Origin: Candidatus Omnitrophota bacterium
GTDB lineage: Bacteria; Omnitrophota; Gorgyraeia; B26-G9
NCBI GenBank assembly: GCA_043814605.1
Contig: JBDRJV010000007.1
Location: forward strand, 3,354-67,353
DNA: 64,000 nt
Reading direction: 5' to 3'
This document shows positions 395-60,573 of this stretch, piece after piece. The first letter of the stretch is position 1. Every line of letters begins with the position of its first letter. The position numbers and the translations under genes are program-made. Below the pieces are notes generated by a model. That model saw only the letters and a list, made by a program, of their open reading frames with translations. It searched no databases and was not told where the DNA came from.

Positions 395-2866
395 ATGAAA
401 AAATTAAAATATAAAAAATTAAATAAAAACTTAGCAACGCTAACAATTGCTTTATGTTGGATTTTGTTTTCTGCTTCATTAGCCTTGGCTGCTAATCAAA
501 TGAGTCAGGATAGTTATTCATTCAGCGTAATTGAGGATAATGCTGCTCCTTATCTAGATCATTGTTTGCCTACGGCTAACGCAACTGATGTTCCTCAGCA
601 CACAAATATTCAGTTTACTATTAAAGATGACGTTTCCGGCGTTGATAGTGGTTCAATTGATTTGACAGTTGAAGGGCAGTTGATTATTAATGATGGAGTC
701 GTTCAGTCCTTTGTTAATTCAATAGGCATAACAGTTGATTATGATGTTGAAATAATTGAGAAAAATTCTTGTGAATACGTAATTATGTATGATCCTGCAG
801 AGTATTTTGATTACAAACAAGTGGTAAATATAGCAGTTTCCGCTTCCGATTTAGAGAATAATACAGCAGCGGCAATAAATTATTCTTTTAAAACCCAGAA
901 ATTTGTTTATGGCGTGATAAGAAGTCTATCCAGGAGAAATATTTTAAGTGATGCGGCTGAAGGGGAACAGGATTATTCTGCTATTGCCACTTCCTCTGAT
1001 GGAAAAAAAGTTTATATTGTTTGGCAGGAATATTCTCAAGATGGGCAATGGAATATTTATTATATGCAATCGCTGGATTTTGGTCAGACCTATAGCAGTG
1101 CCCAACAAGTTCATCCAACTCAAATAGGAGTTGACCATTGTAATCCTCAAATCACAATTGATGCATTGGATAATGTTTATGTTGTCTGGCAGCAAAGAAA
1201 CCACAGTGCAGACTGGGACATTTATGTAGCAAGCTTAAATAATGGCGATATGGAATTCAGCGATAGTTATCTTGTTTATAATGATTCTGGGTTAACTGAC
1301 CAAACTAATCCCGTAATTTGTGTAAAAGATGCTTTGACTGATGATGGAGATAGTAATACGCAGGAACCTGCGACCCTGTATATCGGCTGGGTGGATGCAA
1401 ATGCCGGAATAAATAGCATAAAATTTATCCGGACAACTGCTAATTATCAGGATTATTGGTATGAATTTGTAAATAACCCAGTACGTGTTGATGATGATCG
1501 CTGGCCGCAACAGGCGGGTGGATTAGCTTTAGAAGTCGACGATGCGGGAAATATTATTATTGCTTGGTTAGGAATTAATGTTGACGGCACCAACAGTATT
1601 TATCTTGACCGGGCGCAAAAATCAATAATTGACAGCGGAGAAAATTTTGGTACAGATATTGAAGTTAGTGCAGCAACAGCAGCACAAATAGCTCCGCGAT
1701 TAGAAGTATCTAGTGATGGAAATAATGCCTATGTTTTATGGTTATCTGAAAATCAAACTCAATGCAATCTGAATTTTTCTGATTATTTGTACAGCCAGGG
1801 ACAAGGGATATTTAATTTAGACAGTAATCATCAAGTAAATGCCACCGCGATTACTCTGGATAGTGTGAGTGGATACGACTTAAAAGTTGATGAGCAATCA
1901 GATGTTTTTGTTGTTTGGCAGGAAATACAATCTGGTAACTATATTGTAAAGATTGCCGGTGCGAGTGAATCAGACTATAATTTCGAAGAATATGTTGATT
2001 TTGATACAAGCGGAACTCAAACCCATCCGGTGTTAGCTTTAGATAATAACGGTTATCATTATTATACCGCATGGTCAAATGATAGTGACGGGGTAAAAGA
2101 AATTAATTTATGCAGGAATACTTTTATTGAAACTGATTCTGTTAGTTCTCAAAAAATTGAAAATGATGTCGGCGGCAGTATTAATGTTACTAGCGGCGAT
2201 TTAAGCGGTACAAATGTTACGGTAATCCAAGATTCTGTAGAAACTCCTTTACAGGTCACAATTGCAGAAGTTGTTGCCGCTCCTTTAACAGCTGGGAATT
2301 TAGTTGTGGTTAGCAATGTTGTTGATTTTGGCCCGGGAGGGACTCAATTTGGTACTCCGGCTACAATAACAATCCCTTACACAGAGGTTCAATTAGATAG
2401 TGCGGGAATTACCAATAATGCTAGTTTAAAAATTTATTACTATAATTTAGCGGCTCAGGATTGGGAAGAAATGCCGGGATCAAGTATTGATTTAGCCGCG
2501 GAAAAAATATCTGTTTCTACAGATCACTTTTCTATGTATGCAATTTGCGGCGACCCGACAAGTACAGTAGATACAGGCAGTATTATTACCCCAGCAGTCT
2601 CAGCTTCATCAGGCGGTGGCGGCGGAGGAGGATGTTTTATTGCTACGGCAGCTTTTGGTACGAAGATGGCTAAAGAAGTCAAAATTCTCTGTGAATTTAG
2701 AGACCGGTATTTATTAACTAATTATTGGGGAACACAGTTTGTAAAGTTTTATTATAAGAACAGTCCGCCGATTGCAGATTATATCAGACAGAAAGAAGGT
2801 TTAAGAAGTATGATTAGATTCTGCTTAAAACCGTTGATTAGCCTGAGCAGAATGATATGTGATTAA
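395..2866 (+). CDS. Large secreted protein: signal peptide (ALA-AN cleavage site), six or more beta-propeller-like (Y/F)VVWQ repeats, poly-Gly linker and a Cys-containing C-terminal about 80-aa module (GGGGGGGCFIATAAFG...)
   Basis: 823-aa ORF. The N-terminus is basic then hydrophobic then AxA. Repeats recur: YIVWQEY..WNIYY, YVVWQQ..WDIYVA, YIGWVD, IIAWLG, YVLWLS, FVVWQE. It is the first gene of the exosortase locus. Confidence 0.6.
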   Translation: MKKLKYKKLNKNLATLTIALCWILFSASLALAANQMSQDSYSFSVIEDNAAPYLDHCLPTANATDVPQHTNIQFTIKDDVSGVDSGSIDLTVEGQLIINDGVVQSFVNSIGITVDYDVEIIEKNSCEYVIMYDPAEYFDYKQVVNIAVSASDLENNTAAAINYSFKTQKFVYGVIRSLSRRNILSDAAEGEQDYSAIATSSDGKKVYIVWQEYSQDGQWNIYYMQSLDFGQTYSSAQQVHPTQIGVDHCNPQITIDALDNVYVVWQQRNHSADWDIYVASLNNGDMEFSDSYLVYNDSGLTDQTNPVICVKDALTDDGDSNTQEPATLYIGWVDANAGINSIKFIRTTANYQDYWYEFVNNPVRVDDDRWPQQAGGLALEVDDAGNIIIAWLGINVDGTNSIYLDRAQKSIIDSGENFGTDIEVSAATAAQIAPRLEVSSDGNNAYVLWLSENQTQCNLNFSDYLYSQGQGIFNLDSNHQVNATAITLDSVSGYDLKVDEQSDVFVVWQEIQSGNYIVKIAGASESDYNFEEYVDFDTSGTQTHPVLALDNNGYHYYTAWSNDSDGVKEINLCRNTFIETDSVSSQKIENDVGGSINVTSGDLSGTNVTVIQDSVETPLQVTIAEVVAAPLTAGNLVVVSNVVDFGPGGTQFGTPATITIPYTEVQLDSAGITNNASLKIYYYNLAAQDWEEMPGSSIDLAAEKISVSTDHFSMYAICGDPTSTVDTGSIITPAVSASSGGGGGGGCFIATAAFGTKMAKEVKILCEFRDRYLLTNYWGTQFVKFYYKNSPPIADYIRQKEGLRSMIRFCLKPLISLSRMICD

Positions 2867-7252: not shown

Positions 7253-8125
7253 ATGTATACAAGGAAAATATCTGGTTTAAGGATTATTCAGAGATCATGG
7301 CTAGGATGTTTTAATCTGATATTTGGGAAACCCGTAATTGTCTATCCTTTTTTATTTATAAGTATTTTAGAATTAATAAGCATTTTAACTTTATTCCTAT
7401 TCATCCAGCCGCCTTTAGTTAAATATATTAATCCGATTGTGTTACGTTTCTGGGGAGAGAAATTTTTACATTATCCTTTAAATCTGGTTTTATTATCCCG
7501 TCTTTTTTCCTATCTTCAATTAGCAGTTTTAGTCATATTTGGCACTTTTGCTACGGGGATGACGATAAATATGTCTGCGGATTACTTCCTCAATAACCAG
7601 TTTTCCTTTAAAAAAGCGGTATTAGCCACGATTACTAAATATGTGAGTTTATTAATAATCTCATTATTAATATTCTTCCTTTTACATCAGAGCCAAGTAT
7701 TAGAAAATAGAGTACTGCTTAAAATATTAAATAGGGGAAGGTCTTTTTTAGGAGTGGGAGTAGAAGATTGGAAAACGCTTTTCCTTGTATTTTCTGTGGT
7801 TGTTTCGGGTATTATCCAAACAATATTTATATTTATACAGCCCGCAATCATGATTGAAAATAAGAACTTTTTTTTGGCTATTTTTAGGAATTTAAGTTTT
7901 GTAATGAGAAACTTATTTTCCGCTTTAATATTAACAATTATCCCTTTAACTGTATTTATTCCGGTTGTGTTGCTAAAAAGTAATATGATTGTTCTGATGA
8001 ATAGGCTTATTCCGGAAATAGTTTTTATCATACTTATTGCGGGGGTTTTTATTTCGTTTTTTATAAATTTAGTGATTACAATTTCTATAACTAAAGCATA
8101 TTTAGTAATAAAGAATGATAAATGA
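7253..8125 (+). CDS. Polytopic integral membrane protein, function unknown
   Basis: 290-aa ORF with eight or more hydrophobic helices. It sits in the exosortase locus. Confidence 0.45.
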   Translation: MYTRKISGLRIIQRSWLGCFNLIFGKPVIVYPFLFISILELISILTLFLFIQPPLVKYINPIVLRFWGEKFLHYPLNLVLLSRLFSYLQLAVLVIFGTFATGMTINMSADYFLNNQFSFKKAVLATITKYVSLLIISLLIFFLLHQSQVLENRVLLKILNRGRSFLGVGVEDWKTLFLVFSVVVSGIIQTIFIFIQPAIMIENKNFFLAIFRNLSFVMRNLFSALILTIIPLTVFIPVVLLKSNMIVLMNRLIPEIVFIILIAGVFISFFINLVITISITKAYLVIKNDK

Positions 8126-23409: not shown

Positions 23410-23934
23410 ATGATTGAATTATACATTCTCCTTTTGATTATGATTATCGCTTCAATTGCGGCGCTGGAAGTTAACGATTTGCTTTCTTCTGTGGTTGTAA
23501 TTGGTGCGGTAGGGTTATGTTTAAGTGTCGGATTTTTGCTTTTAAAAGCTCCGGATTTAGCAATTACACAATTGATTGTAGAAATTGTGCTGGTAACAAT
23601 CCTGCTCAGAGCTACATTGACACAGGATCAACATTGTTTTAAAAATAAAAGAGATTTTTATAAACTATTCTTAGTTATTCTGTTAATTAGTTTATTCTTG
23701 TCGGCTGCGTACGTTGTGATTAATGACCTGCCTATTTTTGGCAAACCTTTAATGCGTGCAAGTGAAACTTATTTAATGCAGGAATTAAAAAATAAAAAAG
23801 TTACTAATTTGGTATGTTTAATCAATCTAAAGTACATGATTTTAGACACATTTGGGGCAATGGTTACGTTATTCAGCTGTGTAATCAGCGTTATTTTATT
23901 GAGCCGAAAAAATCCAGAGGAGGATGATTTTTGA
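23410..23934 (+). CDS. Mrp/Mbh-type membrane subunit (MrpB-like DUF4040; MbhD-like)
   Basis: LLKAPDLAITQLIVE matches the DUF4040 APDVALTEA motif. Three or four TM helices. Confidence 0.55.
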   Translation: MIELYILLLIMIIASIAALEVNDLLSSVVVIGAVGLCLSVGFLLLKAPDLAITQLIVEIVLVTILLRATLTQDQHCFKNKRDFYKLFLVILLISLFLSAAYVVINDLPIFGKPLMRASETYLMQELKNKKVTNLVCLINLKYMILDTFGAMVTLFSCVISVILLSRKNPEEDDF

Positions 23935-24419
23935 AAAAAGAAAATCTAAACACAAAGCAAAAAACAGCAGATATGAACACAGAGAAAGGCATGAGCATTA
24001 TTATTAAGACAATTACCCGAATAACTGTGGGAATACTTTTTCTTTATGGAGTGAATATGGTTTTACATGGGAATATTAATCCGGGGGCAGGATTTGCCGG
24101 AGGCGGGATTATTGCCTTGGCTTTTATTAATTTAATTTTAGCTTTTGGCAAGGATGCGGCATTAGAAAAACTGAACCACACCGGGGCGGGAATTATTGCG
24201 GGATTAGGTTTATTTATGTTTTTAGTTTTGAGCATTATTGGTTTCTACGAAGACAGCTTTATCAAATATTTTAAACAGGACAACACATTGATTACAGAAT
24301 TTATGGCGGGAAGCAGGGTTACATTATTTAATATTAGTATTTGTGTGGAAGTCGGAGTAGGAATTTTTGCAATTTTTTTTAGCTTAATTACTTTAAAAAT
24401 TATCGAGGGCAGGAAATGA
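23931..24419 (+). CDS. Na+/H+ antiporter subunit B homologue (MnhB/MrpB; MbhE-like)
   Basis: HGNINPGAGFAGGGI matches the MnhB HGxxTPGGGFQGG motif. TTG start with a GGAGGA RBS. Confidence 0.7.
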   Translation: MKKENLNTKQKTADMNTEKGMSIIIKTITRITVGILFLYGVNMVLHGNINPGAGFAGGGIIALAFINLILAFGKDAALEKLNHTGAGIIAGLGLFMFLVLSIIGFYEDSFIKYFKQDNTLITEFMAGSRVTLFNISICVEVGVGIFAIFFSLITLKIIEGRK

Positions 24420-24742
24420 TATACTTTTTATGTTTTGTTCTGTTTTGCGTAGGAATATACGGGTTGTTGATAAAGAAAAATATTATCAAATTAATCATAA
24501 GTTTAATTATTATTAATTATTCAATTCATATTTTTCTGATCCTGATCGGGTTTAGATGGCAGGGGGCAGCGCCGGTACTCGAAACCGGGGGCAAATTAAC
24601 GCTTATTGTGGATCCTTTGCCGCAAGCAATTGTTCTGGTTTTGCTAATTGTGAATATGTCGGCAATAGCATTATTAATTGCCGTAGCGATGAAGCTTTAC
24701 CAGAAATTTAAAACATTTAATATTAAAGAAATGAAAAATTAA
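24416..24742 (+). CDS. MrpC/NuoK-like small membrane subunit
   Basis: 108 aa, three TM helices, NuoK-like. Its position is after MrpB. Confidence 0.55.
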   Translation: MIYFLCFVLFCVGIYGLLIKKNIIKLIISLIIINYSIHIFLILIGFRWQGAAPVLETGGKLTLIVDPLPQAIVLVLLIVNMSAIALLIAVAMKLYQKFKTFNIKEMKN

Positions 24743-24747
24743 AACAA

Positions 24748-26265
24748 ATGCAATTATTACCTTTATTTATAATCATCCCTGTATTGGCCAGTTTAATCAC
24801 GGCAATTATTGCGCGTCAGAATAATAAAATTGCTGATTTTATTTGTTTTTTAGCCGGAATATCCTTATGGGGATTATCAGTATATTTGCTTATTGTTTTT
24901 AAAAATCAGGCGTTGCTTGTTTTTGCGCAAAGCAGATGGGGGTGGTCGGAAGGAGTTTTATTAGTCGCAGATGGGTTAAGCATAGTTTTATTAAGCATGG
25001 TTTATTTTTTATTTATGAGTATGTTCATATATAATTTTAGATTCCTAAAGGCAGCGGAACAAAGATGGGGATATCACGTAATAGTTTTATTATTGTTAAC
25101 CGGCATTAACGGAGTATTAATAGCGGCAGATATATTTACAATGTATGTTTTTCTGGAAGTCGCGGTTATTGCTTCTTATGCTTTGGTAATTTTTAGAAAT
25201 AAAACAAGAGCATTTTTGAGTTTTTTTAAATATATGGTTACGGGAATATTTGCTTCGGCTTTAATTTTAATGGCAATTGCGGTTTGTTATAGTTATGTGG
25301 CTACCTTAAACATGGCGGAAATCTCGCGTCAAATATCAATACGCGCTGTAAATAGTAATCTTTTATCTGAGAATCCCGTAGTTTGTTTCATGGGAATTTT
25401 ATTTGCTTTAGGTATTGGCTTAAAAACAGGGTTGATTCCTTTTTTAAGTTCGATTTCTAATATCCAGGTGCAAACGAAAACTCCGGCAACAAATATACTT
25501 TCCGTCCTTTTCCTGCCGGTGATTGGAATATACCTTTTTCTGCGGATATTTTTCAATGTACTTATGTTAGGAACAGAATTTTCTAATTTTATTATTTTTT
25601 GGGCAGTTATGTTAATATTCACAGGCATAATTCGGGCGATGTTTAAAAATAATTTTAAGGAAGTTTTAGCTTGCGTTTATATTACAGAAATTGGTATTTG
25701 CTTATTAGCTATCGGTATTGGCAACCTGCTGACAATTACGGCTGGGTTAATGCATCTTTTTCATTATATGATTAACCGGGCTGTTTTAAATTCTTATGCG
25801 GGTATTTTTGAATATACACAGGGAACTACAGATTTTATTCTGATAAAAGGTTTTAAAGTTAAAATGCCGGTAATCGCAATCACTTCGCTGATTGGGAGTT
25901 TTTCATTTGTGGGTATTCCTCCGTTTTCTGGCTTTTGGACAAAGGCTGCAATTGTGGCCGGAGCAGAGCAAGCGGGTTTTCAGTGGGCCCTGCCGTTTAT
26001 GGTAATTGTAAGTTTAGGGAGTTTTATTATTTTTTTTAAAGTCCAATCCCGCATATTTTTTAATTTTAATAAAAATAATGAAAAGCTGCCTTCCCGGCAA
26101 GGAATACCTTTGCTTATGAAAACTGCAATGGTTATCTTAGCTTTTGTATCTTTATTAATTAATGTTTTGTGGTTAATCCCAGAGGAAGAAATGTTTTTAA
26201 CTCCCATTGCGAAAACGATCAAAAACAGTAAGGATTATGCAAGCCGTATCATGGATATATTTTAA
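24748..26265 (+). CDS. MrpD/NuoL/M/N-family proton-translocating antiporter-like subunit (the only one in the cluster)
   Basis: 505 aa with about 14 TM helices and complex I antiporter-family topology. Confidence 0.75.
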   Translation: MQLLPLFIIIPVLASLITAIIARQNNKIADFICFLAGISLWGLSVYLLIVFKNQALLVFAQSRWGWSEGVLLVADGLSIVLLSMVYFLFMSMFIYNFRFLKAAEQRWGYHVIVLLLLTGINGVLIAADIFTMYVFLEVAVIASYALVIFRNKTRAFLSFFKYMVTGIFASALILMAIAVCYSYVATLNMAEISRQISIRAVNSNLLSENPVVCFMGILFALGIGLKTGLIPFLSSISNIQVQTKTPATNILSVLFLPVIGIYLFLRIFFNVLMLGTEFSNFIIFWAVMLIFTGIIRAMFKNNFKEVLACVYITEIGICLLAIGIGNLLTITAGLMHLFHYMINRAVLNSYAGIFEYTQGTTDFILIKGFKVKMPVIAITSLIGSFSFVGIPPFSGFWTKAAIVAGAEQAGFQWALPFMVIVSLGSFIIFFKVQSRIFFNFNKNNEKLPSRQGIPLLMKTAMVILAFVSLLINVLWLIPEEEMFLTPIAKTIKNSKDYASRIMDIF

Positions 26266-26759
26266 TGAAAAGAAAAACAGTTTTGTTTATAATTTGTGTT
26301 CTAATTTGGTGCGGATTAAATTGGCCAATCAATCGGAAATGGTTAATTATCGGCTTGGGAGTGAGCACGATTATTGCTTTAGGCTCAGGTGATATTTTTA
26401 TCCGGCGCCCCCATATTTTAATTCATTTTAAAAGATATTTTTGGCTGATTTACTATTTAGCTTTTCTTTCAACTCAAATAATAAAAGCTAATATTTATAT
26501 TATTTATTGTCTTTGCCAGCCGGCTTTATCACTGCATCCGGGGATTGTAAAAGTTAAAACAAGAATAAGAAGTGAAATGGGTCTGACTGTTTTGGCTAAT
26601 TCGATAACTTTTTCCACAGGAACTTGCGTTGTTGATATCGATAACGCTAATGGATATATATATGTACATTGGATGGATGTTAAAAGTCAAAGTATAAAAC
26701 CGGCAACTGAACTGATTGTTGAGAAATTCGAAAAAATATTAAGAGAGGTGTTTGATTAA
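26265..26759 (+). CDS. MrpE-like subunit
   Basis: 164 aa with an N-terminal TM pair. Size and position are typical of MnhE. Confidence 0.5.
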   Translation: MKRKTVLFIICVLIWCGLNWPINRKWLIIGLGVSTIIALGSGDIFIRRPHILIHFKRYFWLIYYLAFLSTQIIKANIYIIYCLCQPALSLHPGIVKVKTRIRSEMGLTVLANSITFSTGTCVVDIDNANGYIYVHWMDVKSQSIKPATELIVEKFEKILREVFD

Positions 26760-27117
26760 TAAAATGGTTGAAGATAAAATAGGGCAAAGAATTTATTGGT
26801 TAATGGGAATAATATTTTTAAGCTTAATGCTGATTGCTACGTTTTTATTATTTCCCTATTTTTTAGAACGGGCTTTATTTTTTCTTTTGATTTGTTGTTT
26901 ATTTGTTCTGATGCGAATGCTTATCGGGCCGGGAGCATGCCAAAGAATAGTTGCGGTAACAATCATTAGCATGCTGATTATCGGATTTTGCGGCATTCTC
27001 GCGTTCTTTACCCAAAAGAACTGGTATATTGATATTGCTTTAGTTTGGGTTTTTCAGTCTTTTATTGCCACACTTACTTTTGCAAAATTTCTCGAAGGAA
27101 AAAGATTTGATGATTAA
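26752..27117 (+). CDS. MrpF-like subunit
   Basis: Small three-TM protein in the MnhF position. Start is TTG 26752 or ATG 26764. Confidence 0.4.
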   Translation: MINKMVEDKIGQRIYWLMGIIFLSLMLIATFLLFPYFLERALFFLLICCLFVLMRMLIGPGACQRIVAVTIISMLIIGFCGILAFFTQKNWYIDIALVWVFQSFIATLTFAKFLEGKRFDD

Positions 27118-27145
27118 ATGATTATTGTAAAGCAGGAAGGAAGTT

Positions 27146-27493
27146 ATGATTGAATTAGGAAAAATATTTTTAATTTTAGGGTTGATATTTGATTTGATCG
27201 GAACAATTAGTTTAATGCGCATGCCGGATATTTATAGCCAATTACAAAGCGCGGCAAAAAGTGTAACCTTAGGGACTTGCTTGATTCTCTTTGGTGTGTT
27301 TTTAAGCCGGGGGATGAGTAGCGCTGGGTTCAAAACACTTTTGGTCCTGGGGTTTTTAATCCTGATCAGTCCTGTTTCTGTACATGCTTTAGCACGGGGA
27401 ATTCATAAAAGCCGAAACATAAACCTTAAAAACTATGTATGTGATCAATACCATGATGATCAATTAAGGAAAAAAGATAACATTTCTAATTAG
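27146..27493 (+). CDS. MrpG-like subunit (MnhG/PhaG)
   Basis: LMRMPDIYSQLQSAAKSVTLG matches the MnhG LRxPDxYTRLHAAxK core. Confidence 0.65.
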   Translation: MIELGKIFLILGLIFDLIGTISLMRMPDIYSQLQSAAKSVTLGTCLILFGVFLSRGMSSAGFKTLLVLGFLILISPVSVHALARGIHKSRNINLKNYVCDQYHDDQLRKKDNISN

Positions 27494-27554
27494 TTACTAT
27501 TAAATAAGTTATAACATAATAGTAATTATTTATGAATTTTTAGCAATTTATACA

Positions 27555-27660
27555 TCCGCGGCCTAAAACCGCTCCCATTTATGGCGCGGATAAAAGGAGG
27601 CCGCTTGAGTATTCCAGGCCAGGAACACGGGCTTTAGCCCGTGAGGGGGTCCATTAGGCA
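27555..27660 (+). ncRNA. GC-rich structured intergenic element, a candidate small RNA or cis-regulatory RNA
   Basis: GC content is locally far above the flanks. Perfect hairpin cacgggc-ttta-gcccgtg. Imperfect stem atccgcggcc...ggcgcggat. No ORF. Confidence 0.3.
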
Positions 27661-27708
27661 AAATTATATATTTTGCCCAGTTGCTTTTTTGATTAAAACT
27701 GGTAAAAT

Positions 27709-27744
27709 TAAGAACTTAAACAGATTAATTTGTTTAAGTTCTTA
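27709..27744. promoter_or_regulatory. Candidate operator: 14-bp perfect inverted repeat TAAGAACTTAAACA-N8-TGTTTAAGTTCTTA abutting a TATAAT -10 box at 27751-27756
   Basis: Perfect 14/14 arms. The spacer contains ATTAAT. It ends 34 nt upstream of the hypA ATG. Confidence 0.4.
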
Positions 27745-27777: not shown

Positions 27778-28020
27778 ATGCACGAAATGGGGATAGCGCA
27801 GGAAGTTTTTAAATCTGTTTTACTGGAACTGAAGGACTATGAATATAAAAAAATTAATAAAATTGTCCTGGAAGTTGGTGAATATAATTTAATTGAGCCA
27901 GAGTCTCTTCAAAATGCGTTTAGGCTGATTGCAGAAAACTCCCGGGCAAATAATGCTATCCTTGAAATAAAACAAATCCCGGGAATGGAAATAAAAATAA
28001 TACACATTGATGCAGAGTAA
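27778..28020 (+). CDS. hypA: HypA-like nickel metallochaperone lacking the zinc-finger domain
   Basis: N-terminal MHE nickel-binding motif. The N-domain and the final beta-strand (IKIIHIDAE, compare E. coli LQIRRIEIDQE) are present. There are no cysteines, so the CxxC...CxxC Zn site is precisely absent. Confidence 0.6.
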   Translation: MHEMGIAQEVFKSVLLELKDYEYKKINKIVLEVGEYNLIEPESLQNAFRLIAENSRANNAILEIKQIPGMEIKIIHIDAE

Positions 28021-29212
28021 AATTGAGCAAATTCAAATACCATTAAATAATATTTACCAAAAATCTTGGATAAAAAATAAAACGGTTTTGGCTTTAGGTC
28101 CGGAACTTAAGTCAAATTATGCTGTTATTATAAATTCTCAGGCTATTGTTTACACCGGGTTTGGAGATTTAAAAAACCCGGATAATTTTACGAGATACAA
28201 AAAACATATTTTAAAAACAATCAAAAATTTATCAAAAAAACCGCAAGTTATAGCCTGTGATTTTAATCCGATATTTTTAAGCTCCCAATTTGCCCGTAAG
28301 TTACAAGCTTCAACTTTAGGTAAAAGCAAATTAAATCCTGTATTGCATCATTATGCGCATATTGCGGCCAGCTGTGCGGTTTTAAATCTAATGCAGACAC
28401 AAGTTTTAGGTATTGTTTGTGATGGTACGGGATTGGGCGATGATGATCAGACTTGGGGCTGTGAGTTTATCAAAAAATCGGCAGGCAATTTTACACGCTG
28501 CGGACACTTAAATTATATTCCTTTGCCTGGTGCGGATTATGCGGTTATTGAGCCTTGGCGCGTCGGGCTTTCCTTGCTTTATCAAACTTTTGGTGATAAA
28601 ATATTTACTCTGGATTTAGCTTTGCTTAAACATCACCAGGATAAAACAAATATATTAGTTAAAATGATCAAACAGGGTTTTAATACGCCGATGGCTTCCA
28701 GTGCAGGTAGATTATTTGATGGAGTTGCGGCAATTTTGGGTTTTTTTAAAAAAATAAAATTTGAAGCTCAGGCAGCTGTACTTTTAGAGCAGCAGGCACA
28801 AAAAGTTATAAATTATGAAAAAGGCAAGTATGCTTATAAGATACAAAAAGCAGGTTTAAAGTTTATTCTGAACACAAATGAGTTAATTGAGGATATTGTG
28901 GCAGACTTAAGGGCTAATCAACCTAAAGAAATTATAGCCGCGCGTTTTCATAATACATTTAGCGATATGATAATAAAAATGGCGGGAAAAATTACGCAAC
29001 AAAAAGAAAATAGTAAGATTAAGGATATTGTTTTATCCGGAGGAGTTTTTTTTAATAGGATAATTTCCGATAAAGTAATCAGGGGCTTAGAAAAGTATGG
29101 ATTTAAAGTACATAAACCAGAGAACTTAATTTTATCTGATGCGGGTTTATCATTAGGGCAGGCGGTGATAGGGTATGTGTTTAGGAATTCCGGTAAAGGT
29201 AAAAAAAATTAA
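28007..29212 (+). CDS. hypF: HypF C-terminal (Kae1/TsaD-like carbamoyltransferase) domain only; the acylphosphatase, Zn-finger and YrdC domains are absent
   Basis: HHYAHIAAS, GIVCDGTGLGDDDQTWGCEF, PLPGADYAVIEPWR, SSAGRLFDGVAAILG and LSGGVFFN match the HypF C-terminal domain. Only about 25 aa precede it. Confidence 0.75.
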   Translation: MMQSKIEQIQIPLNNIYQKSWIKNKTVLALGPELKSNYAVIINSQAIVYTGFGDLKNPDNFTRYKKHILKTIKNLSKKPQVIACDFNPIFLSSQFARKLQASTLGKSKLNPVLHHYAHIAASCAVLNLMQTQVLGIVCDGTGLGDDDQTWGCEFIKKSAGNFTRCGHLNYIPLPGADYAVIEPWRVGLSLLYQTFGDKIFTLDLALLKHHQDKTNILVKMIKQGFNTPMASSAGRLFDGVAAILGFFKKIKFEAQAAVLLEQQAQKVINYEKGKYAYKIQKAGLKFILNTNELIEDIVADLRANQPKEIIAARFHNTFSDMIIKMAGKITQQKENSKIKDIVLSGGVFFNRIISDKVIRGLEKYGFKVHKPENLILSDAGLSLGQAVIGYVFRNSGKGKKN

Positions 29213-29408
29213 AGGGAATACGGCTACAGTCAGTACCGGATCTGTAGAAAAACAGATTGGTATTGAACTGACTCCGGATGTAAAAGTAGGTGATTATGTG
29301 CTTTTACATGCTGGGTTTGCGATAGAAATTATAAATGAAAAAGTTGCTCAAGAGACCTTGAAATTATTAGAAGAAATGTTTTCAATGGAAATAGATGATC
29401 AAAAATAA
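29175..29408 (+). CDS. hypC: HypC/HupF hydrogenase maturation factor
   Basis: N-terminal MCLGIP (essential Cys2), about 77 aa, OB-fold. Confidence 0.8.
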   Translation: MCLGIPVKVKKIKGNTATVSTGSVEKQIGIELTPDVKVGDYVLLHAGFAIEIINEKVAQETLKLLEEMFSMEIDDQK

Positions 29409-29428: not shown

Positions 29429-30520
29429 TTGAAGCTTATGGATAAAACTAGAAATAATAAATTAGCCAGTCAGCTCCGGCAAACGATTACCCGTTTTTGT
29501 AAAAAAATAGAAAAAAATATATCAATCATGGAAGTCTGCGGTACGCATACAGTGGCTTTGTTTCGTTCCGGGATTAGAGAAATGCTGCCTTCTAATATGA
29601 GAATCATCTCCGGGCCCGGATGTCCGGTTTGCGTAACCGATCAAGCTGATGTTGACCGCGCCATCGGTCTTTGTCAATTAGAGAATACTATTGTTACCAC
29701 TTTTGGTGATATGATGCAGGTTCCGGGGACTGAAGTTAGTTTAGAACAGATGAAAGCACAGGGCCGAGATGTACGGGTTGTATATTCTGCGTTGGATGCT
29801 TTAGAAATTGCTAAAACTAATAATGAAAATGTTATTCATATTGCGGTTGGATTTGAAACTACAGCTCCGACAATTGCAGCAGTTTTAAAAAGAGCTAAAC
29901 AAGAAAAGGTAAATAATTTTTATGTATTGAGTGCGAATAAAATTGTACCGCCGGCTTTGGAGTGTTTGGTTGCTTGCGCAAAAAGCAGGATTAATGCGTT
30001 TATTTTACCCGGACATGTTAGTGCCATTATTGGAGCAAAACCATACCAATTTCTTGCGGATAAGTATAATAAACCCTGTGTGATTGCCGGATTTGAGCCT
30101 GTAGATATTTTGCAGGCAATCGCAATGTTGTGTAAACAAATAGTCGAACAAAAATCGAGGATTGAGATACAATATACACGTTGTGTGCAAAGGGAGGGAA
30201 ACATTTTAGCTCAGAAAATATTAAGAGAAGTTTTTGAGGTTCGGGATGCACAATGGCGCGGCTTGGGGGTAATGAAGAAAAGTGGATTTTTTTTAAATAA
30301 AAATTATGCAGGATTTGAGGCGCGAGAAAATTTTAAGGTAAAAATTCCTAAGCCAAAAAAAACGCCTTGCCGCTGCGGTGATGTTTTGCAGGGGGTAATT
30401 TTGCCGCCGGAATGCAAACTGTTTCAGAATAAATGTACGCCAGAGAATCCGATTGGACCGTGTATGGTTTCAACAGAAGGAACTTGCGCAGCATATTATC
30501 GTTACGCCAGAGTTTCTTAA
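29429..30520 (+). CDS. hypD: HypD hydrogenase maturation factor (Fe-S)
   Basis: CGTHT, GPGCPVCVT, FETTAP and the C-terminal CPVC-type cysteines. ATG 29438 is an alternative start. Confidence 0.9.
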   Translation: MKLMDKTRNNKLASQLRQTITRFCKKIEKNISIMEVCGTHTVALFRSGIREMLPSNMRIISGPGCPVCVTDQADVDRAIGLCQLENTIVTTFGDMMQVPGTEVSLEQMKAQGRDVRVVYSALDALEIAKTNNENVIHIAVGFETTAPTIAAVLKRAKQEKVNNFYVLSANKIVPPALECLVACAKSRINAFILPGHVSAIIGAKPYQFLADKYNKPCVIAGFEPVDILQAIAMLCKQIVEQKSRIEIQYTRCVQREGNILAQKILREVFEVRDAQWRGLGVMKKSGFFLNKNYAGFEARENFKVKIPKPKKTPCRCGDVLQGVILPPECKLFQNKCTPENPIGPCMVSTEGTCAAYYRYARVS

Positions 30521-30540
30521 CTTATTATCAGAGGAAAAAA

Positions 30541-31569
30541 TTGAATGACCAATTAAAAAATAAAAACGTTACATTAGCTTACGGTAATGGCGGACAATTA
30601 ATGCAGCAGCTGATCAATAATTTGATCAAGGCTAATTTTGGCAATCCGATATTAAATAAACTGGATGATGCTGCTGTTTTAAACGGGGTTGGCTTTAGGG
30701 AACATCTTGTATTTACTACAGATTCTTTTGTGGTGAGTCCGATATTTTTTCCGGGTGGCGATATCGGTAAGCTGGCGGTTTGCGGTACAATAAATGACCT
30801 TTGCATGATGGGTGCAAAACCATTATATTTAAGTCTGAGTATGATTATTGAGGAGGGATTTGCTTTTAAAGATCTAGAAAGAATTGTTAGCTCCATTAAG
30901 AAAACAATTAAAATAGCTGGGGTTAAAATAGTTTGCGGTGATACTAAGGTTGTAAATAAAGGTAATTGTGATAAAATATTCATTAATACATCTGGAATCG
31001 GCAGTATTGATAATCGCACAAATATTAGTGCATCTAAGGCTAAACCTGATGACCTAATTATCGTGAGCGGGCCAATTGGTGAACATGGAATTGCAATTAT
31101 TAGTCAACGAAAGGGGCTCGGGTTTAAAACAAAATTGAAAAGTGATTGTGCGCCTTTAAATGATCTTGTCCTAAATTTAATGAAATATAAAAATAAAATT
31201 CATGTTTTCAGAGATCCGACACGCGGGGGGCTTGCGAGTGTATTAAATGAAATTGCGCAACTTTCCAATGTTGGCATAGAAGTTGATGAAGTAAAGATTC
31301 CCGTGAGTAATGCAGTAAAGGGCGCGAGTGCAATTTTGGGATTGGATCCTTTGTACCTGCCGTGTGAAGGAAGATTAGTCGCTGTGGTTAGCCCGGATAA
31401 AATGCCGCAAATTTTAAACTTAATGCAAAAAAATAAAAAAGGCAGGGGAGCAAGAGTTATTGGCCGAATAAAAGCCGGGCACAAAAAAGAGGTATATTTA
31501 AATACTGTAATTGGCGGCAGGCGGATTCTTGATTTACCGATCCGGGAACAAACACCGCGAATTTGTTAA
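30541..31569 (+). CDS. hypE: HypE (carbamoyl dehydratase, PurM-like)
   Basis: PurM-like fold motifs and the invariant C-terminal PRIC. TTG start 7 nt after an AGAGGA RBS, with no overlap with hypD. Confidence 0.85.
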   Translation: MNDQLKNKNVTLAYGNGGQLMQQLINNLIKANFGNPILNKLDDAAVLNGVGFREHLVFTTDSFVVSPIFFPGGDIGKLAVCGTINDLCMMGAKPLYLSLSMIIEEGFAFKDLERIVSSIKKTIKIAGVKIVCGDTKVVNKGNCDKIFINTSGIGSIDNRTNISASKAKPDDLIIVSGPIGEHGIAIISQRKGLGFKTKLKSDCAPLNDLVLNLMKYKNKIHVFRDPTRGGLASVLNEIAQLSNVGIEVDEVKIPVSNAVKGASAILGLDPLYLPCEGRLVAVVSPDKMPQILNLMQKNKKGRGARVIGRIKAGHKKEVYLNTVIGGRRILDLPIREQTPRIC

Positions 31570-31594: not shown

Positions 31595-32401
31595 ATGATC
31601 GTAAGAGAAGCAGATATTACCCGGGCAATAATCAAAACAGCTACGGATGAATTACTTGATAATATTGAAGTGGATGTGATCATTGCTGGCGGCGGTCCCG
31701 CCGGACTTACGTGTGCGCGTTACTTAGGTCAAGCGGGGAAAAAAGTTGTACTTTTTGAGCGTAAATTAAATTATGGGGGGGGAATGCCGGGCGGAGGGAT
31801 GTTATTTCCCCGGATAGTGATTGAGAAACAAGCAAAATCAATCCTTTCTGAAATAAATGTGAGATTAAAACCTTATGATAAAAATTATTACACTGCAGAT
31901 TCAGTGGAAGCAATTTCTAAAATGGGTGTTGCAGCAATCGATGCTGGATTAAGAATATATCCTGCAGTTACAGTTGAAGATTTGGTGATTCGAGCGAATA
32001 ATAAAGTGCAAGGTGCAGTAATAAATTGGTCTGCAGTACAAATTGCCGGATTACATGTTGATCCATTAGTAATTATGTCTGAATACGTTGTGGATGCGAC
32101 CGGGCATGATGCCGATATTACAAATACGTTATTAAGAAAGAATCCTAATGTAAAACTAAAAACAAAAACAGGTAAAGTTATAGGTGAAAAATCAATGTGG
32201 GCTCAGCAGGGAGAAAATTTAATTCTGTCTAATACAAAGGAAGTTTTTCCCGGGCTTTTTCTGGCGGGTATGGCGGTTAATGCTGTTGCCGGGGTACCAC
32301 GGATGGGAGCTGTTTTTGGCGGTATGCTGCTTTCGGGAAAAAAAGCGGCAATGCTAATTTTAGCCAGATTAAATAATAAAAAGAAAAGAAAGTTAAATTA
32401 A
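31595..32401 (+). CDS. thi4: Thiamine thiazole synthase, Thi4 family (archaeal/eukaryotic type)
   Basis: VDVIIAGGGPAGLTCA FAD/NAD Rossmann motif and Thi4-family spacing. AGGAGA RBS. Confidence 0.8.
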   Translation: MIVREADITRAIIKTATDELLDNIEVDVIIAGGGPAGLTCARYLGQAGKKVVLFERKLNYGGGMPGGGMLFPRIVIEKQAKSILSEINVRLKPYDKNYYTADSVEAISKMGVAAIDAGLRIYPAVTVEDLVIRANNKVQGAVINWSAVQIAGLHVDPLVIMSEYVVDATGHDADITNTLLRKNPNVKLKTKTGKVIGEKSMWAQQGENLILSNTKEVFPGLFLAGMAVNAVAGVPRMGAVFGGMLLSGKKAAMLILARLNNKKKRKLN

Positions 32402-42821: not shown

Positions 42822-43355
42822 TTAAAAAATTAATGGTATTTGTTTGTACTGCTTTATTTTAGCTCTGGGCGGACCTAAAATAATAGACCATATTATACCT
42901 TCTTTTATATTACTTTTCAAGCTGAGGGAGTCAGTTTTTTTTACAATTGGTTTTTCTTCCTTTAACTTAGATGGTTCCGGAAGTACAAAATCTGTTTTTT
43001 TTGTTTGAATTTGTTCTGTTTTTGCTTTTGTTAGTGAAATTTTTTTTAAGCTTTTTTGCTTTAAATCATTGAACTTTTTCCGGCGTACAGCCAGGCGTTC
43101 TTCATAACTTTGATCAGATTGAACATCTTTTAAAAAATCTCCCTCACGCTGGGGCAGATCTTTTATTTGATAATCCTGGACAAATTGCTCCAAACCAAAA
43201 TCTCCTGCTGCTAAGTTGCTTTTTGTTAAGGCATCAGGCACATAAGGTTTAGGAGGTTTCTTTATGGTATTGAATTTTTCTTGTTTTTTTAAATTAGAAA
43301 CAACCCAAATTACCATGATCAGTAAATAAAAAATTAATTTAATTAATCCTTCCAT
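42822..43355 (-). CDS. Hypothetical membrane-anchored, charged protein
   Basis: 177-aa ORF with an N-terminal TM helix followed by a K/E-rich region. It is the last gene of the floA operon. Confidence 0.4.
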   Translation of the reverse strand: MEGLIKLIFYLLIMVIWVVSNLKKQEKFNTIKKPPKPYVPDALTKSNLAAGDFGLEQFVQDYQIKDLPQREGDFLKDVQSDQSYEERLAVRRKKFNDLKQKSLKKISLTKAKTEQIQTKKTDFVLPEPSKLKEEKPIVKKTDSLSLKSNIKEGIIWSIILGPPRAKIKQYKQIPLIF

Positions 43356-46725: not shown

Positions 46726-46801
46726 TGGTGGAGCTGGGGGGACTCGAACCCCCGACCAACAGACTGCCAGTCTGCTGCGCTCCCAACTGCGCTACAGCCC
46801 C
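46726..46801 (-). tRNA. tRNA-Ala (anticodon GGC)
   Basis: Reverse complement GGGGCTGTAGCGCAGTTGGGAGCGC...CTGGCAG...GGGGGTTCGAGTCCCCCCAGCTCCACCA. It has the G3-U70 identity pair. CCA is encoded. Confidence 0.85.
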
Positions 46802-59541: not shown

Positions 59542-60573
59542 ATGACTCCAGAACTTAAAGGTCATGGCATTCCGTTTGATCCGATTGATTTTGATTTAGA
59601 AGAACCCATCAAGCAAGATTTCGTACAATCCCAAGAACCAGCCCTAGGGGATAAGCCTACACTGGCTGATGCTAAAAAGCCGCAGTTACCAAAGAAAAAA
59701 TTTGCAACCCGTTTTGTTTTAATTTTCTTTGTTCTTTTAGCCTTATCTGCTATAGGTGTTGCGGCGTATTATTATTTAGGTAAAGAAGAAGAAATTAGTA
59801 AAAGAATAGAAGTCGAAGCAACTTTAGCTACGGTTAAAGAGGAAAAAGTAATTGTGGAAAAAAATTTAGATGAAATTACTTTACAACGGGATCAGCTGCA
59901 GGTAGATGTGGAAGAAAGTAAAAGCAATTATAAAAGATTGTTAGTGGATTTTGAACAAGAACAAAACGCTAACAAAAAACTTGCCTCAGAGCTTGATAAA
60001 AGTGTAAAACAAATAACTTCGCTTAAGAAAGTTCTGGATAAGGAAGTAGAAAATAATGCCAAAATTAGCGCAAAGTTAACAATGTCTTCACGTGAATATG
60101 AAGACATAAAGCTGCAATTAAGCCAAATTAGAATGGCTAAAGAAGCTTTGGAGAATAGAATTTTGCAAATGAATAAAAAACAATCTCACAGCGGTGTGGA
60201 ATTGGAAAAAATTGTGGTTAATTCCAGCCCGCAAGATTTGCAACCGGAGACAGACTTAACACAAGAAACAACCAAGGTTAATTTTCAAAACTCACCGCTG
60301 CAAGCGTCAAAGCCCGTGTTTATTCCTTTGCCCCCTCCGGCTCGTTTGGAAGGGCAAGTGCTGGTGGTAAATAAAGAATTTGCTTTTGTGGTAATCAATA
60401 TCGGAGAAAAAGATGGCATAAAAAATTCAGAAGTTTTAGATGTTTATCATGGGCTGGAAAAAGTCGGGAAAGTTCAAATTGAAAGAATTTATGACACAAT
60501 GTCATCCGCGATTATTATTCCGGAGTCGACAAAACAGCAAATCAAAGAAGGCGATATTGTAAGGCTAATGTAG
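59542..60573 (+). CDS. Membrane-anchored coiled-coil protein with a C-terminal beta-rich domain, function unknown
   Basis: One TM helix (FVLIFFVLLALSAIGVAAYYY), about 150 aa of coiled coil, and a C-terminal GxVLVVNKEFAFVVINIG..DGI domain. Confidence 0.45.
   Translation: MTPELKGHGIPFDPIDFDLEEPIKQDFVQSQEPALGDKPTLADAKKPQLPKKKFATRFVLIFFVLLALSAIGVAAYYYLGKEEEISKRIEVEATLATVKEEKVIVEKNLDEITLQRDQLQVDVEESKSNYKRLLVDFEQEQNANKKLASELDKSVKQITSLKKVLDKEVENNAKISAKLTMSSREYEDIKLQLSQIRMAKEALENRILQMNKKQSHSGVELEKIVVNSSPQDLQPETDLTQETTKVNFQNSPLQASKPVFIPLPPPARLEGQVLVVNKEFAFVVINIGEKDGIKNSEVLDVYHGLEKVGKVQIERIYDTMSSAIIIPESTKQQIKEGDIVRLM

Follow-up and report, generated by a model that had tools for sequence, protein, structure and literature searches.

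An 80-residue HypA without the zinc module in a hyp operon of Omnitrophota: a putative minimal nickel chaperone

Introduction

HypA is described as a two-domain protein that binds nickel and zinc in reviews from 2019 and 2025 and in a primary paper from 2026. Its nickel ligands are the N-terminal amine, His2, and Glu3 (PMC7055735), and this nickel-binding site is also touched by the immature large subunit HyhL through its N-terminal tail (PMC7055735; PMC12134894). [quoted passage not shown] In the HypAB complex of T. kodakarensis, a nanomolar nickel site uses His98 (PMC7055735). The role of the zinc domain is debated; it has been regarded as a structural scaffold, as a pH or nickel sensor, and as a protein-interaction surface. 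In H. pylori, single cysteine substitutions in the zinc site left a hydrogenase activity of 9-60% of the wild type (PMC5557546), so a canonical HypA cannot readily do without the domain. Such point mutants are hard to interpret because the protein is also destabilised.

Here, we analysed a stretch of 64,000 nucleotides, referred to as the window, from a contig of a Candidatus Omnitrophota bacterium (GCA_043814605.1, JBDRJV010000007.1). It contains a hyp operon whose first gene (positions 27778-28020, forward strand) encodes a cysteine-free HypA of 80 residues that comprises only the nickel-binding domain and is called mini-HypA below. Pfam, AlphaFold2, Foldseek, dN/dS values, and sequence alignments were used in its assignment. 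A preliminary description, made from the sequence, had presented a HypA without the zinc domain as not characterised. This agrees with the full-text literature searched, in which no description of a zinc-less HypA was found; a paper on Thi4 in Omnitrophica mentions HypA merely as a generic example (PMC13325395). The subclass is new to the literature searched, and its sequences are already public under the HypA name.

Results

The mini-HypA gene and protein

The mini-HypA gene starts with ATG, and a Shine-Dalgarno-like AAGGA was read from the sequence 6-10 nucleotides upstream of the start codon. The complete protein sequence of 80 residues is MHEMGIAQEVFKSVLLELKDYEYKKINKIVLEVGEYNLIEPESLQNAFRLIAENSRANNAILEIKQIPGMEIKIIHIDAE. 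It consists of the MHE N terminus, the elements alpha-beta-alpha-beta-beta, and then the terminal strand GMEIKIIHIDAE. The cysteine count was zero, as first reported. The proposed homology to HypA was borne out by Pfam, where the HypA family PF01155 matched residues 1-69 with profile positions 1-69 of 112 (E = 1.2e-15). The score of 57.9 bits, compared with a gathering cut-off of 28.9 bits, was far beyond chance. The NCBIfam equivalog TIGR00100 was matched at positions 1-68 of 116 with 48.9 bits, which is below its cut-off of 88.1 bits, as expected for a protein with one third missing. The public record of the identical protein reads [quoted passage not shown].

Among the features that define the HypA family, the PF01155 match, Met1-His2-Glu3, the nickel-domain fold including the C-terminal strand, and the neighbourhood of hyp genes were all present, whereas the structural zinc site of two CxxC motifs was absent. 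Mini-HypA is thus a HypA by homology, fold, nickel motif, and context, yet it lacks one textbook-defining feature. Because HypA is defined as a nickel and zinc protein, the missing zinc domain led us to file mini-HypA as a zinc-less HypA subclass without canonical status.

Boundaries of the deletion

For the comparison of the two classes, 235 HypA sequences (96 short and 139 long) were aligned. Short and long HypAs had all columns in common except one block. In the short sequences the gap began directly behind the "...LEIxxxP" strand and reached as far as the "G-xEL-V--IE-E" strand, and both CxxC motifs were gone. The consensus of the long HypAs was "...LEI..VP....C..CG..F... ...CP.CG... ....SG-.EL.I..IE.-E", compared with "...LEIE... 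G-.EL.V.S.EG-E" for the short HypAs. Judged by HypAs of 111-113 residues, the absent CxxC-Xn-CxxC module comprises about 31-33 residues and was lost in frame. The alignment thereby confirmed the boundaries of the in-frame loss that had been proposed at the outset. Retention of the MHE motif, the N-domain, and the terminal strand, likewise proposed, was evident from the sequence, the 235-sequence alignment, and the fold match described below.

A profile of 55 short HypAs was also aligned with individual canonical proteins. Profile positions 1-65 aligned to residues 1-65 of T. kodakarensis HypA. In a second segment, positions 65-80 paired with residues 119-134 of the same protein (EVVKGRGVYVAGIKIE) and, in the case of H. 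pylori HypA, with residues 99-114 (VIITQGNEMRLLSLEM). Both second segments were sub-threshold (-2.5 and 1.6 bits; i-Evalue >1e3) and not significant alone, so that the last strand of mini-HypA was placed by the 235-sequence alignment and the fold match and not by the HMMER second segments.

The preliminary description had weighed a designed short form against a pseudogene with a frameshifted zinc-finger segment near the 3' end. Neither a CxxC motif nor a zinc-finger remnant was found in the three forward frames of positions 27950-28130, and a frameshifted remnant was rejected on these grounds. There is also no room for such a remnant 3' of hypA, because the next open reading frame (28007..29212) matches HypF_C from its residue 24. 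Together with the conserved orthologues described below, this speaks against a pseudogene.

Predicted structure

An AlphaFold2 model of mini-HypA was built with a 55-sequence alignment and had a mean pLDDT of 95.6 and a pTM of 0.83. The model contained a helix (residues 2-17), a strand (26-34), a second helix (41-52), and two further strands (61-67 and 72-79). A four-residue turn, Pro68-Gly69-Met70-Glu71, connected the strands on either side of the position taken by the zinc module in canonical HypA. In a Foldseek comparison of the model with the PDB, the top 14 matches were all HypA. The best match, chain 3a43_B (T. kodakarensis HypA), had a query-normalised TM of 0.90 and an rmsd of 1.8 Å, and the structural alignment of 113 columns bridged the zinc domain. 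The question whether the beta-sheet closes without the zinc loop had been raised in the preliminary description; closure through a tight Pro-Gly-x-Glu hairpin is predicted with high confidence. Within the last strand, His76 was common to the three Omnitrophota sequences inspected (the window and the relatives P0002 and P0003, see below) and was absent from other mini-HypAs.

A family of zinc-less short HypAs

A phmmer search with the 80-residue mini-HypA against 1.84 billion cluster representatives yielded 168 proteins at E ≤ 1e-3. Among the best 150 of these 168 matches, 66 were not longer than 95 residues, and most of them matched end to end; the eight best matches after the query were short HypAs aligned end to end. 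Most of the short HypAs from this search contained 0-2 cysteines, and none contained a CxxC pair. Met1, His2, Glu3, and Gly34 were at least 90% conserved among 55 short HypAs. A profile search of a collection of 5.8 billion proteins yielded 481 proteins at E ≤ 1e-5, many of them exactly 80 residues long and labelled HypA/HybF by JGI/NCBI. Among the 263 sequences collected from public data, about 96 were distinct zinc-less short HypAs of 76-95 residues. Every mini-HypA found originated from a metagenome or a metagenome-assembled genome (MAG).

Zinc-less HypA is therefore a recurrent family and not an accident of one genome. The protein belongs to a sizeable, recurrently evolved class with a length of 78-88 residues that is already labelled "HypA" in databases. 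For annotation, this means that the label conceals an architectural subclass.

Mini-HypA in other lineages and independent losses of the zinc module

In Spirochaetota MAGs, mini-HypA heads an operon of hypA, hypB (cobW family), full hypF, hypC, hypD, and hypE, which is divergent from a HoxF/U/Y/H-type [NiFe]-hydrogenase. The full-length hypF beside mini-HypA encodes 763-768 residues with all five HypF Pfam families. On a 236-kb JGI contig (L003), a group-4 Mbh/Mrp-type hydrogenase cluster ends with the HycI protease gene and, directly after it, mini-HypA. Short contigs carried HycI followed by mini-HypA, mini-HypA followed by HypB, or mini-HypA followed by full-length HypF. With ordinary partners and several hydrogenase classes adjoining it on the Spirochaetota, JGI, and short contigs, mini-HypA occupies ordinary HypA positions.

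The Spirochaetota were compared further by scanning one genome per GTDB species with the Spirochaetota mini-HypA subclade. An 80-residue HypA was found in seven species (L016-L022) and a 111-residue HypA with two CxxC motifs in four species (L023, L024, L026, and L027). The C terminus ELxxxSFEGD was common to both forms. Downstream of both forms followed hypB-hypF-hypC-hypD-hypE, and the HypB proteins were 64-74% identical (tblastn with the Hyp proteins of L001). The N terminus of the Spirochaetota HypB (MKVNVMSDILKANDLLA), which carries the aliphatic-x-aliphatic motif, hardly differed between operons with mini and with long HypAs, which argues for docking that is independent of the zinc module.

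Over the 80 shared columns, the mean identity between the mini and long HypAs of Spirochaetota was 59%, compared with 29% between the mini-HypAs of Spirochaetota and Omnitrophota. A clade of all mini-HypAs appeared in 0 of 100 neighbour-joining (NJ) bootstraps. On a larger NJ tree the short HypAs were more clustered than expected by chance, with 31 changes between the short and long states compared with about 74 after label shuffling, and clades of 30, 15, and 7 sequences consisted of short HypAs only; these trees rest on the 80 shared columns and are weak. A single origin of all mini-HypAs was rejected, since they were never monophyletic and the Spirochaetota mini-HypAs group with the Spirochaetota long HypAs by identity. 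Because the Spirochaetota mini-HypAs are 59% identical to their long orthologues and only 29% identical to those of Omnitrophota, the sequence comparison indicates that the zinc module was lost independently at least two times, in at least two phyla, and that the zinc-less forms persisted and diversified.

A HoxFUYH-type hydrogenase was located divergently upstream of hypA in all mini-HypA Spirochaetota species whose contig reaches there. No HoxH, HoxY, or HoxF match was found in the 8 kb upstream in L023 and L027 or in the short upstream stretches of L024 and L026. There are thus hints that loss of the zinc domain correlates with a particular hydrogenase or operon arrangement.

Omnitrophota orthologues and selection

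The closest relative of the window mini-HypA, P0002 (GCA_043806135.1, locus L006), has 80 residues and 59% identity. A second relative, P0003 (GCA_043826625.1, locus L009), which is labelled Candidatus Omnitrophota, also has 80 residues and is 46% identical to the window protein. The gene order in L006 is GT9, GT2, hypA, hypF (385 residues, HypF_C domains only), hypC, hypD, hypE, HcyBio, CheC, RnfC/D/B, and RACo. L009 has the same order (GT9-GT2-hypA-hypF(C)-hypC-D-E-HcyBio-CheC-Rnf), and in both L009 and the window the locus is preceded by helicase, PAC2, and Opp transporter genes. The overlap of hypA and hypF is kept in the three Omnitrophota, with 14 nucleotides in the window and L006 and 17 nucleotides in L009. 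For hypA of the window and L006, pN was 0.26 and pS was 0.70, corresponding to a dN of 0.32, a dS of about 2.0, and a dN/dS of about 0.16. Mini-HypA is under purifying selection. A single large deletion or a pseudogene was rejected in view of the conserved orthologues and this ratio.

All of the sequences stem from metagenome assemblies, where a normal hypA could appear truncated through mis-assembly, a frameshift, or a collapsed repeat in the MAG. However, three independent assemblies, namely one NCBI MAG and two Logan runs, gave the same 243 nucleotides for the P0002 gene, and the P0180 and P0161 mini-HypAs were each present on 10-11 contigs. In addition, the deletion is exactly in frame with intact flanking genes and no zinc-finger remnant in any frame. 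An artefact is already refuted by the independent recovery, and we assign it practically no probability. The conserved length, overlap, and synteny, the dN/dS value, and the identical independent recovery together exclude that the gene is a pseudogene, the product of a recent deletion, or an assembly artefact.

The hyp operon of the window

The gene that follows hypA (28007..29212, forward strand) overlaps its end by 14 nucleotides and encodes a truncated HypF, which comprises only the Kae1-like carbamoyltransferase (HypF_C and HypF_C_2). The acylphosphatase, zinc-finger, and YrdC domains, by which carbamoyl-AMP is made, are missing. TIGR00143 was matched at positions 389-739 of 741 with 239 bits, compared with a cut-off of 466 bits, and the four-domain architecture of HypF is not present. 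The Kae1-only HypF has 401 residues in the window, 385 residues in L006 (2763-3920), and 393 residues in L009 (10227-11408). The window protein is 47-50% identical to the two orthologues and keeps the HHYAH metal motif; pN of the gene was 0.34, with synonymous sites saturated.

HypC (29175..29408, forward strand; PF01455, E = 4.9e-26) has the N terminus MCLGIP. HypD (29429..30520, forward strand; PF01924, E = 5.7e-147) contains the motifs CGTHT, GPGCPVC, and FETT. For HypE (AIRS and AIRS_C), the longest open reading frame is 30433..31569 on the forward strand, with the canonical C-terminal end ...PRIC; the true start is probably a TTG near 30553, which gives 338 residues as in the relatives L006 and L009. 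The intact catalytic motifs of HypC, HypD, and HypE argue that the [NiFe] cofactor is being made.

When nearly all non-nested open reading frames of at least 110 residues in the 64 kb were searched with Pfam, no HypB/cobW, hydrogenase subunit, FKBP/SlyD, or N-terminal half of HypF was found. The absence of hypB had been pointed out in connection with the short HypA. The absence itself was confirmed and extends to the whole 64 kb, but it is a property of the Omnitrophota lineage and is not tied to the short form, since mini-HypA directly precedes hypB in Spirochaetota and on other contigs. Omnitrophota commonly encode group 4g [NiFe]-hydrogenases (PMC10066038), which makes a client hydrogenase elsewhere in the genome plausible.

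Compared with the Spirochaetota arrangement hypA-hypB-hypF(full)-hypCDE, the window lacks hypB and the first approximately 380 codons of hypF. A deletion might have removed the zinc-finger portion at the 3' end of hypA together with hypB and the 5' half of hypF, leaving the remnant of a dying hyp operon in a genome from which the hydrogenase was lost. The lack of a hydrogenase within 64 kb would fit such decay, as would a neighbouring Mrp module without the catalytic subunits that accompany its counterpart in L003. However, the length of 80 residues, the C-terminal strand, and the overlap of hypA and hypF-C are kept in lineages that are only 46-59% identical, and dN/dS is about 0.16 for hypA, with a pN of 0.34 and saturated synonymous sites for hypF-C. 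The end point of hypA is the same as in all other mini-HypAs, including those located before an intact hypB and a full hypF. All motifs are kept in HypC, HypD, and HypE, and a Kae1-only HypF has a precedent in HypF1 of C. necator (PMC9100943). Decay is thus largely refuted by conservation, and we consider it highly improbable.

A different explanation for the tight translational coupling to hypF-C and for the absent hypB would be repurposing, in which the Omnitrophota mini-HypA has abandoned the chaperone role for nickel, or combines it with another role, and acts as a small partner subunit in the Kae1-only HypF/HypE machinery or serves another metalloenzyme. The overlap with the truncated hypF is kept in three lineages, none of which has an adjacent hypB, and His76 is confined to the three Omnitrophota sequences inspected. 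Elsewhere HypA paralogues do serve nickel enzymes other than hydrogenases, with examples in the urease of H. pylori (PMC7055735) and in a putative isoprene reductase operon (PMC10134865). On the other hand, mini-HypAs of the same length and with the same motifs stand in standard positions (before hypB or after HycI) beside hydrogenases in other phyla, and the MHE nickel motif is strictly kept. Overlapping genes are common in hyp operons and do not imply a physical complex, and no HypA-HypF contact was found in the literature searched. Repurposing appears unlikely on balance.

Other features of the window

A seven-gene Mrp/Mbh-type antiporter module (MbhD, MnhB, C, D, E, F, and G; 23410-27493, forward strand) separates the GT2 gene from hypA, whereas the syntenic loci L006 and L009 have no such module at that position. 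The window module and its Mrp counterpart in the L003 group-4 hydrogenase cluster that ends with HycI-miniHypA are collinear, with identities of 28-45%; hydrogenase catalytic subunits are present beside the module in L003 and missing in the window. Downstream, a gene for a Thi4-family thiazole synthase (31595-32401, forward strand) is inserted between hypE and HcyBio, whereas hypE leads directly to HcyBio in L006 and L009.

The intergenic region 5' of hypA contains a GC-rich island (27550-27660) with 58% GC, compared with 18-30% in its flanks. A structured RNA at this site was rejected, as Rfam gave only a chance snoRNA match, the fold z-scores were only -1.6 and -1.7, or about -1.7 on either strand, and the island was not conserved in the relatives. 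It is not considered part of the mini-HypA feature. The equivalent place in L006 and L007 contains different GC-rich palindromic repeats (CTCCCACCCCCGGGGTGGGAG). A terminator-like hairpin (27657-27677) probably ends the Mrp operon. Just after the hairpin, a near-perfect palindrome of 18+18 nucleotides (27709-27744; TAAGAACTTAAACAGATT/AATTTGTTTAAGTTCTTA) lies 33 nucleotides before the hypA start codon and may serve as an operator; no copy of it was found in front of hypA in L006 or L009.

At 46726-46801 (reverse strand), Rfam reported a tmRNA with 47.3 bits, just above the gathering score and over 76 nucleotides only, and ARAGORN reported tRNA-Ala(GGC). The tmRNA call was rejected as a false positive that is due to the tRNA-like part of the model. 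Four open reading frames had no Pfam match at E ≤ 1e-5, namely 395-2866 (forward strand, 823 residues), 7253-8125 (forward, 290 residues), 59542-60573 (forward, 343 residues), and 42822-43355 (reverse, 177 residues). The first of these is located upstream of an exosortase (EpsH)/DUF3485 pair.

Discussion

From sequence comparison and the structural model, the product of the gene at 27778-28020 is most likely a functional, naturally occurring mini-HypA with no more than the nickel-binding domain. The absence of a hydrogenase, HypB, and SlyD within 64 kb and the missed TIGR00100 cut-off were weighed against this assignment, as were the zinc-site mutants of H. pylori, the lost His98, and the metagenomic origin of every example. 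The parts of HypA that are named for nickel binding and for contact with the large subunit all lie within the portion kept by mini-HypA. The protein would bind Ni(II) via the N-terminal amine, His2, and Glu3, as in canonical HypA. The recipient of the metal would be a [NiFe]-hydrogenase whose genes lie elsewhere in the genome, namely its large subunit once loaded with Fe(CN)2CO. Docking to HypB, where present, and to the large subunit may proceed through the nickel domain, and the zinc module would hence be dispensable in these lineages. A high-affinity nickel site of the His98 type cannot operate in mini-HypA, because His98 lies inside the missing segment.

In the present Omnitrophota lineage, synthesis of mini-HypA would be translationally coupled to that of the Kae1-only HypF, followed by HypC, HypD, and HypE, and HypB would be encoded elsewhere or not used. 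By the reasoning put forward for HypF1, a truncated HypF needs carbamoyl-adenylate from elsewhere (PMC9100943). A more far-reaching proposal, which we regard as speculative and rather doubtful, is a pared-down [NiFe]-cofactor pathway that consists of the zinc-less HypA, the Kae1-only HypF, and HypCDE without HypB. Mini-HypA might then insert nickel without the aid of a dedicated NTPase, or it might have gained another partner, for instance the truncated HypF.

On the same speculative reading, the zinc module, having been lost repeatedly and independently, would be a lineage-specific regulatory add-on outside the core mechanism of nickel delivery. The zinc-site cysteine mutants of H. pylori keep a misfolded domain, whereas the domain is cleanly excised in mini-HypA. 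The mini and long HypAs of Spirochaetota, which occupy the same operon slot beside nearly identical HypBs, are ready-made matched pairs for the role of the zinc domain. With such pairs it can be asked what share the domain has in nickel affinity, in coupling to HypB, and in docking to the large subunit. As a predicted minimal nickel chaperone of 80 residues, mini-HypA could also simplify the heterologous maturation of hydrogenases.

Among the known systems, HypF1 of C. necator (R. eutropha) was the only precedent found for a Kae1-only HypF. It resembles the neighbour gene of mini-HypA (28007-29212), not HypA itself, in that only the C-terminal Kae1-like carbamoyltransferase domain is present. 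C. necator differs from the window in that a full-length HypF2 and a normal two-domain HypA are also encoded. The mini-HypA of Spirochaetota (P0180, L016-L022) agrees with the window protein in its 80-residue architecture and in the boundaries of the deletion. It differs in its low identity of about 29% to the window protein, in the hypB and full hypF that follow, and in the adjoining HoxFUYH-type hydrogenase, and it arose separately from a long HypA of the Spirochaetota type (L023, L024, L026, and L027; 59% identity). Canonical HypA/HybF (PF01155; 3A43 and 5AUN from T. kodakarensis, 6G81 and 2KDX from H. pylori) has a CxxC-Xn-CxxC zinc module, whereas mini-HypA has neither the module nor any cysteine. 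Because the whole module is absent, mini-HypA is without the zinc site, the equivalent of T. kodakarensis His98, and domain-swap dimerisation. The MHE motif, the alpha/beta nickel domain, and the terminal strand are common to both, and both stand in the same gene position, either first in the hyp operon or directly after the maturation protease.
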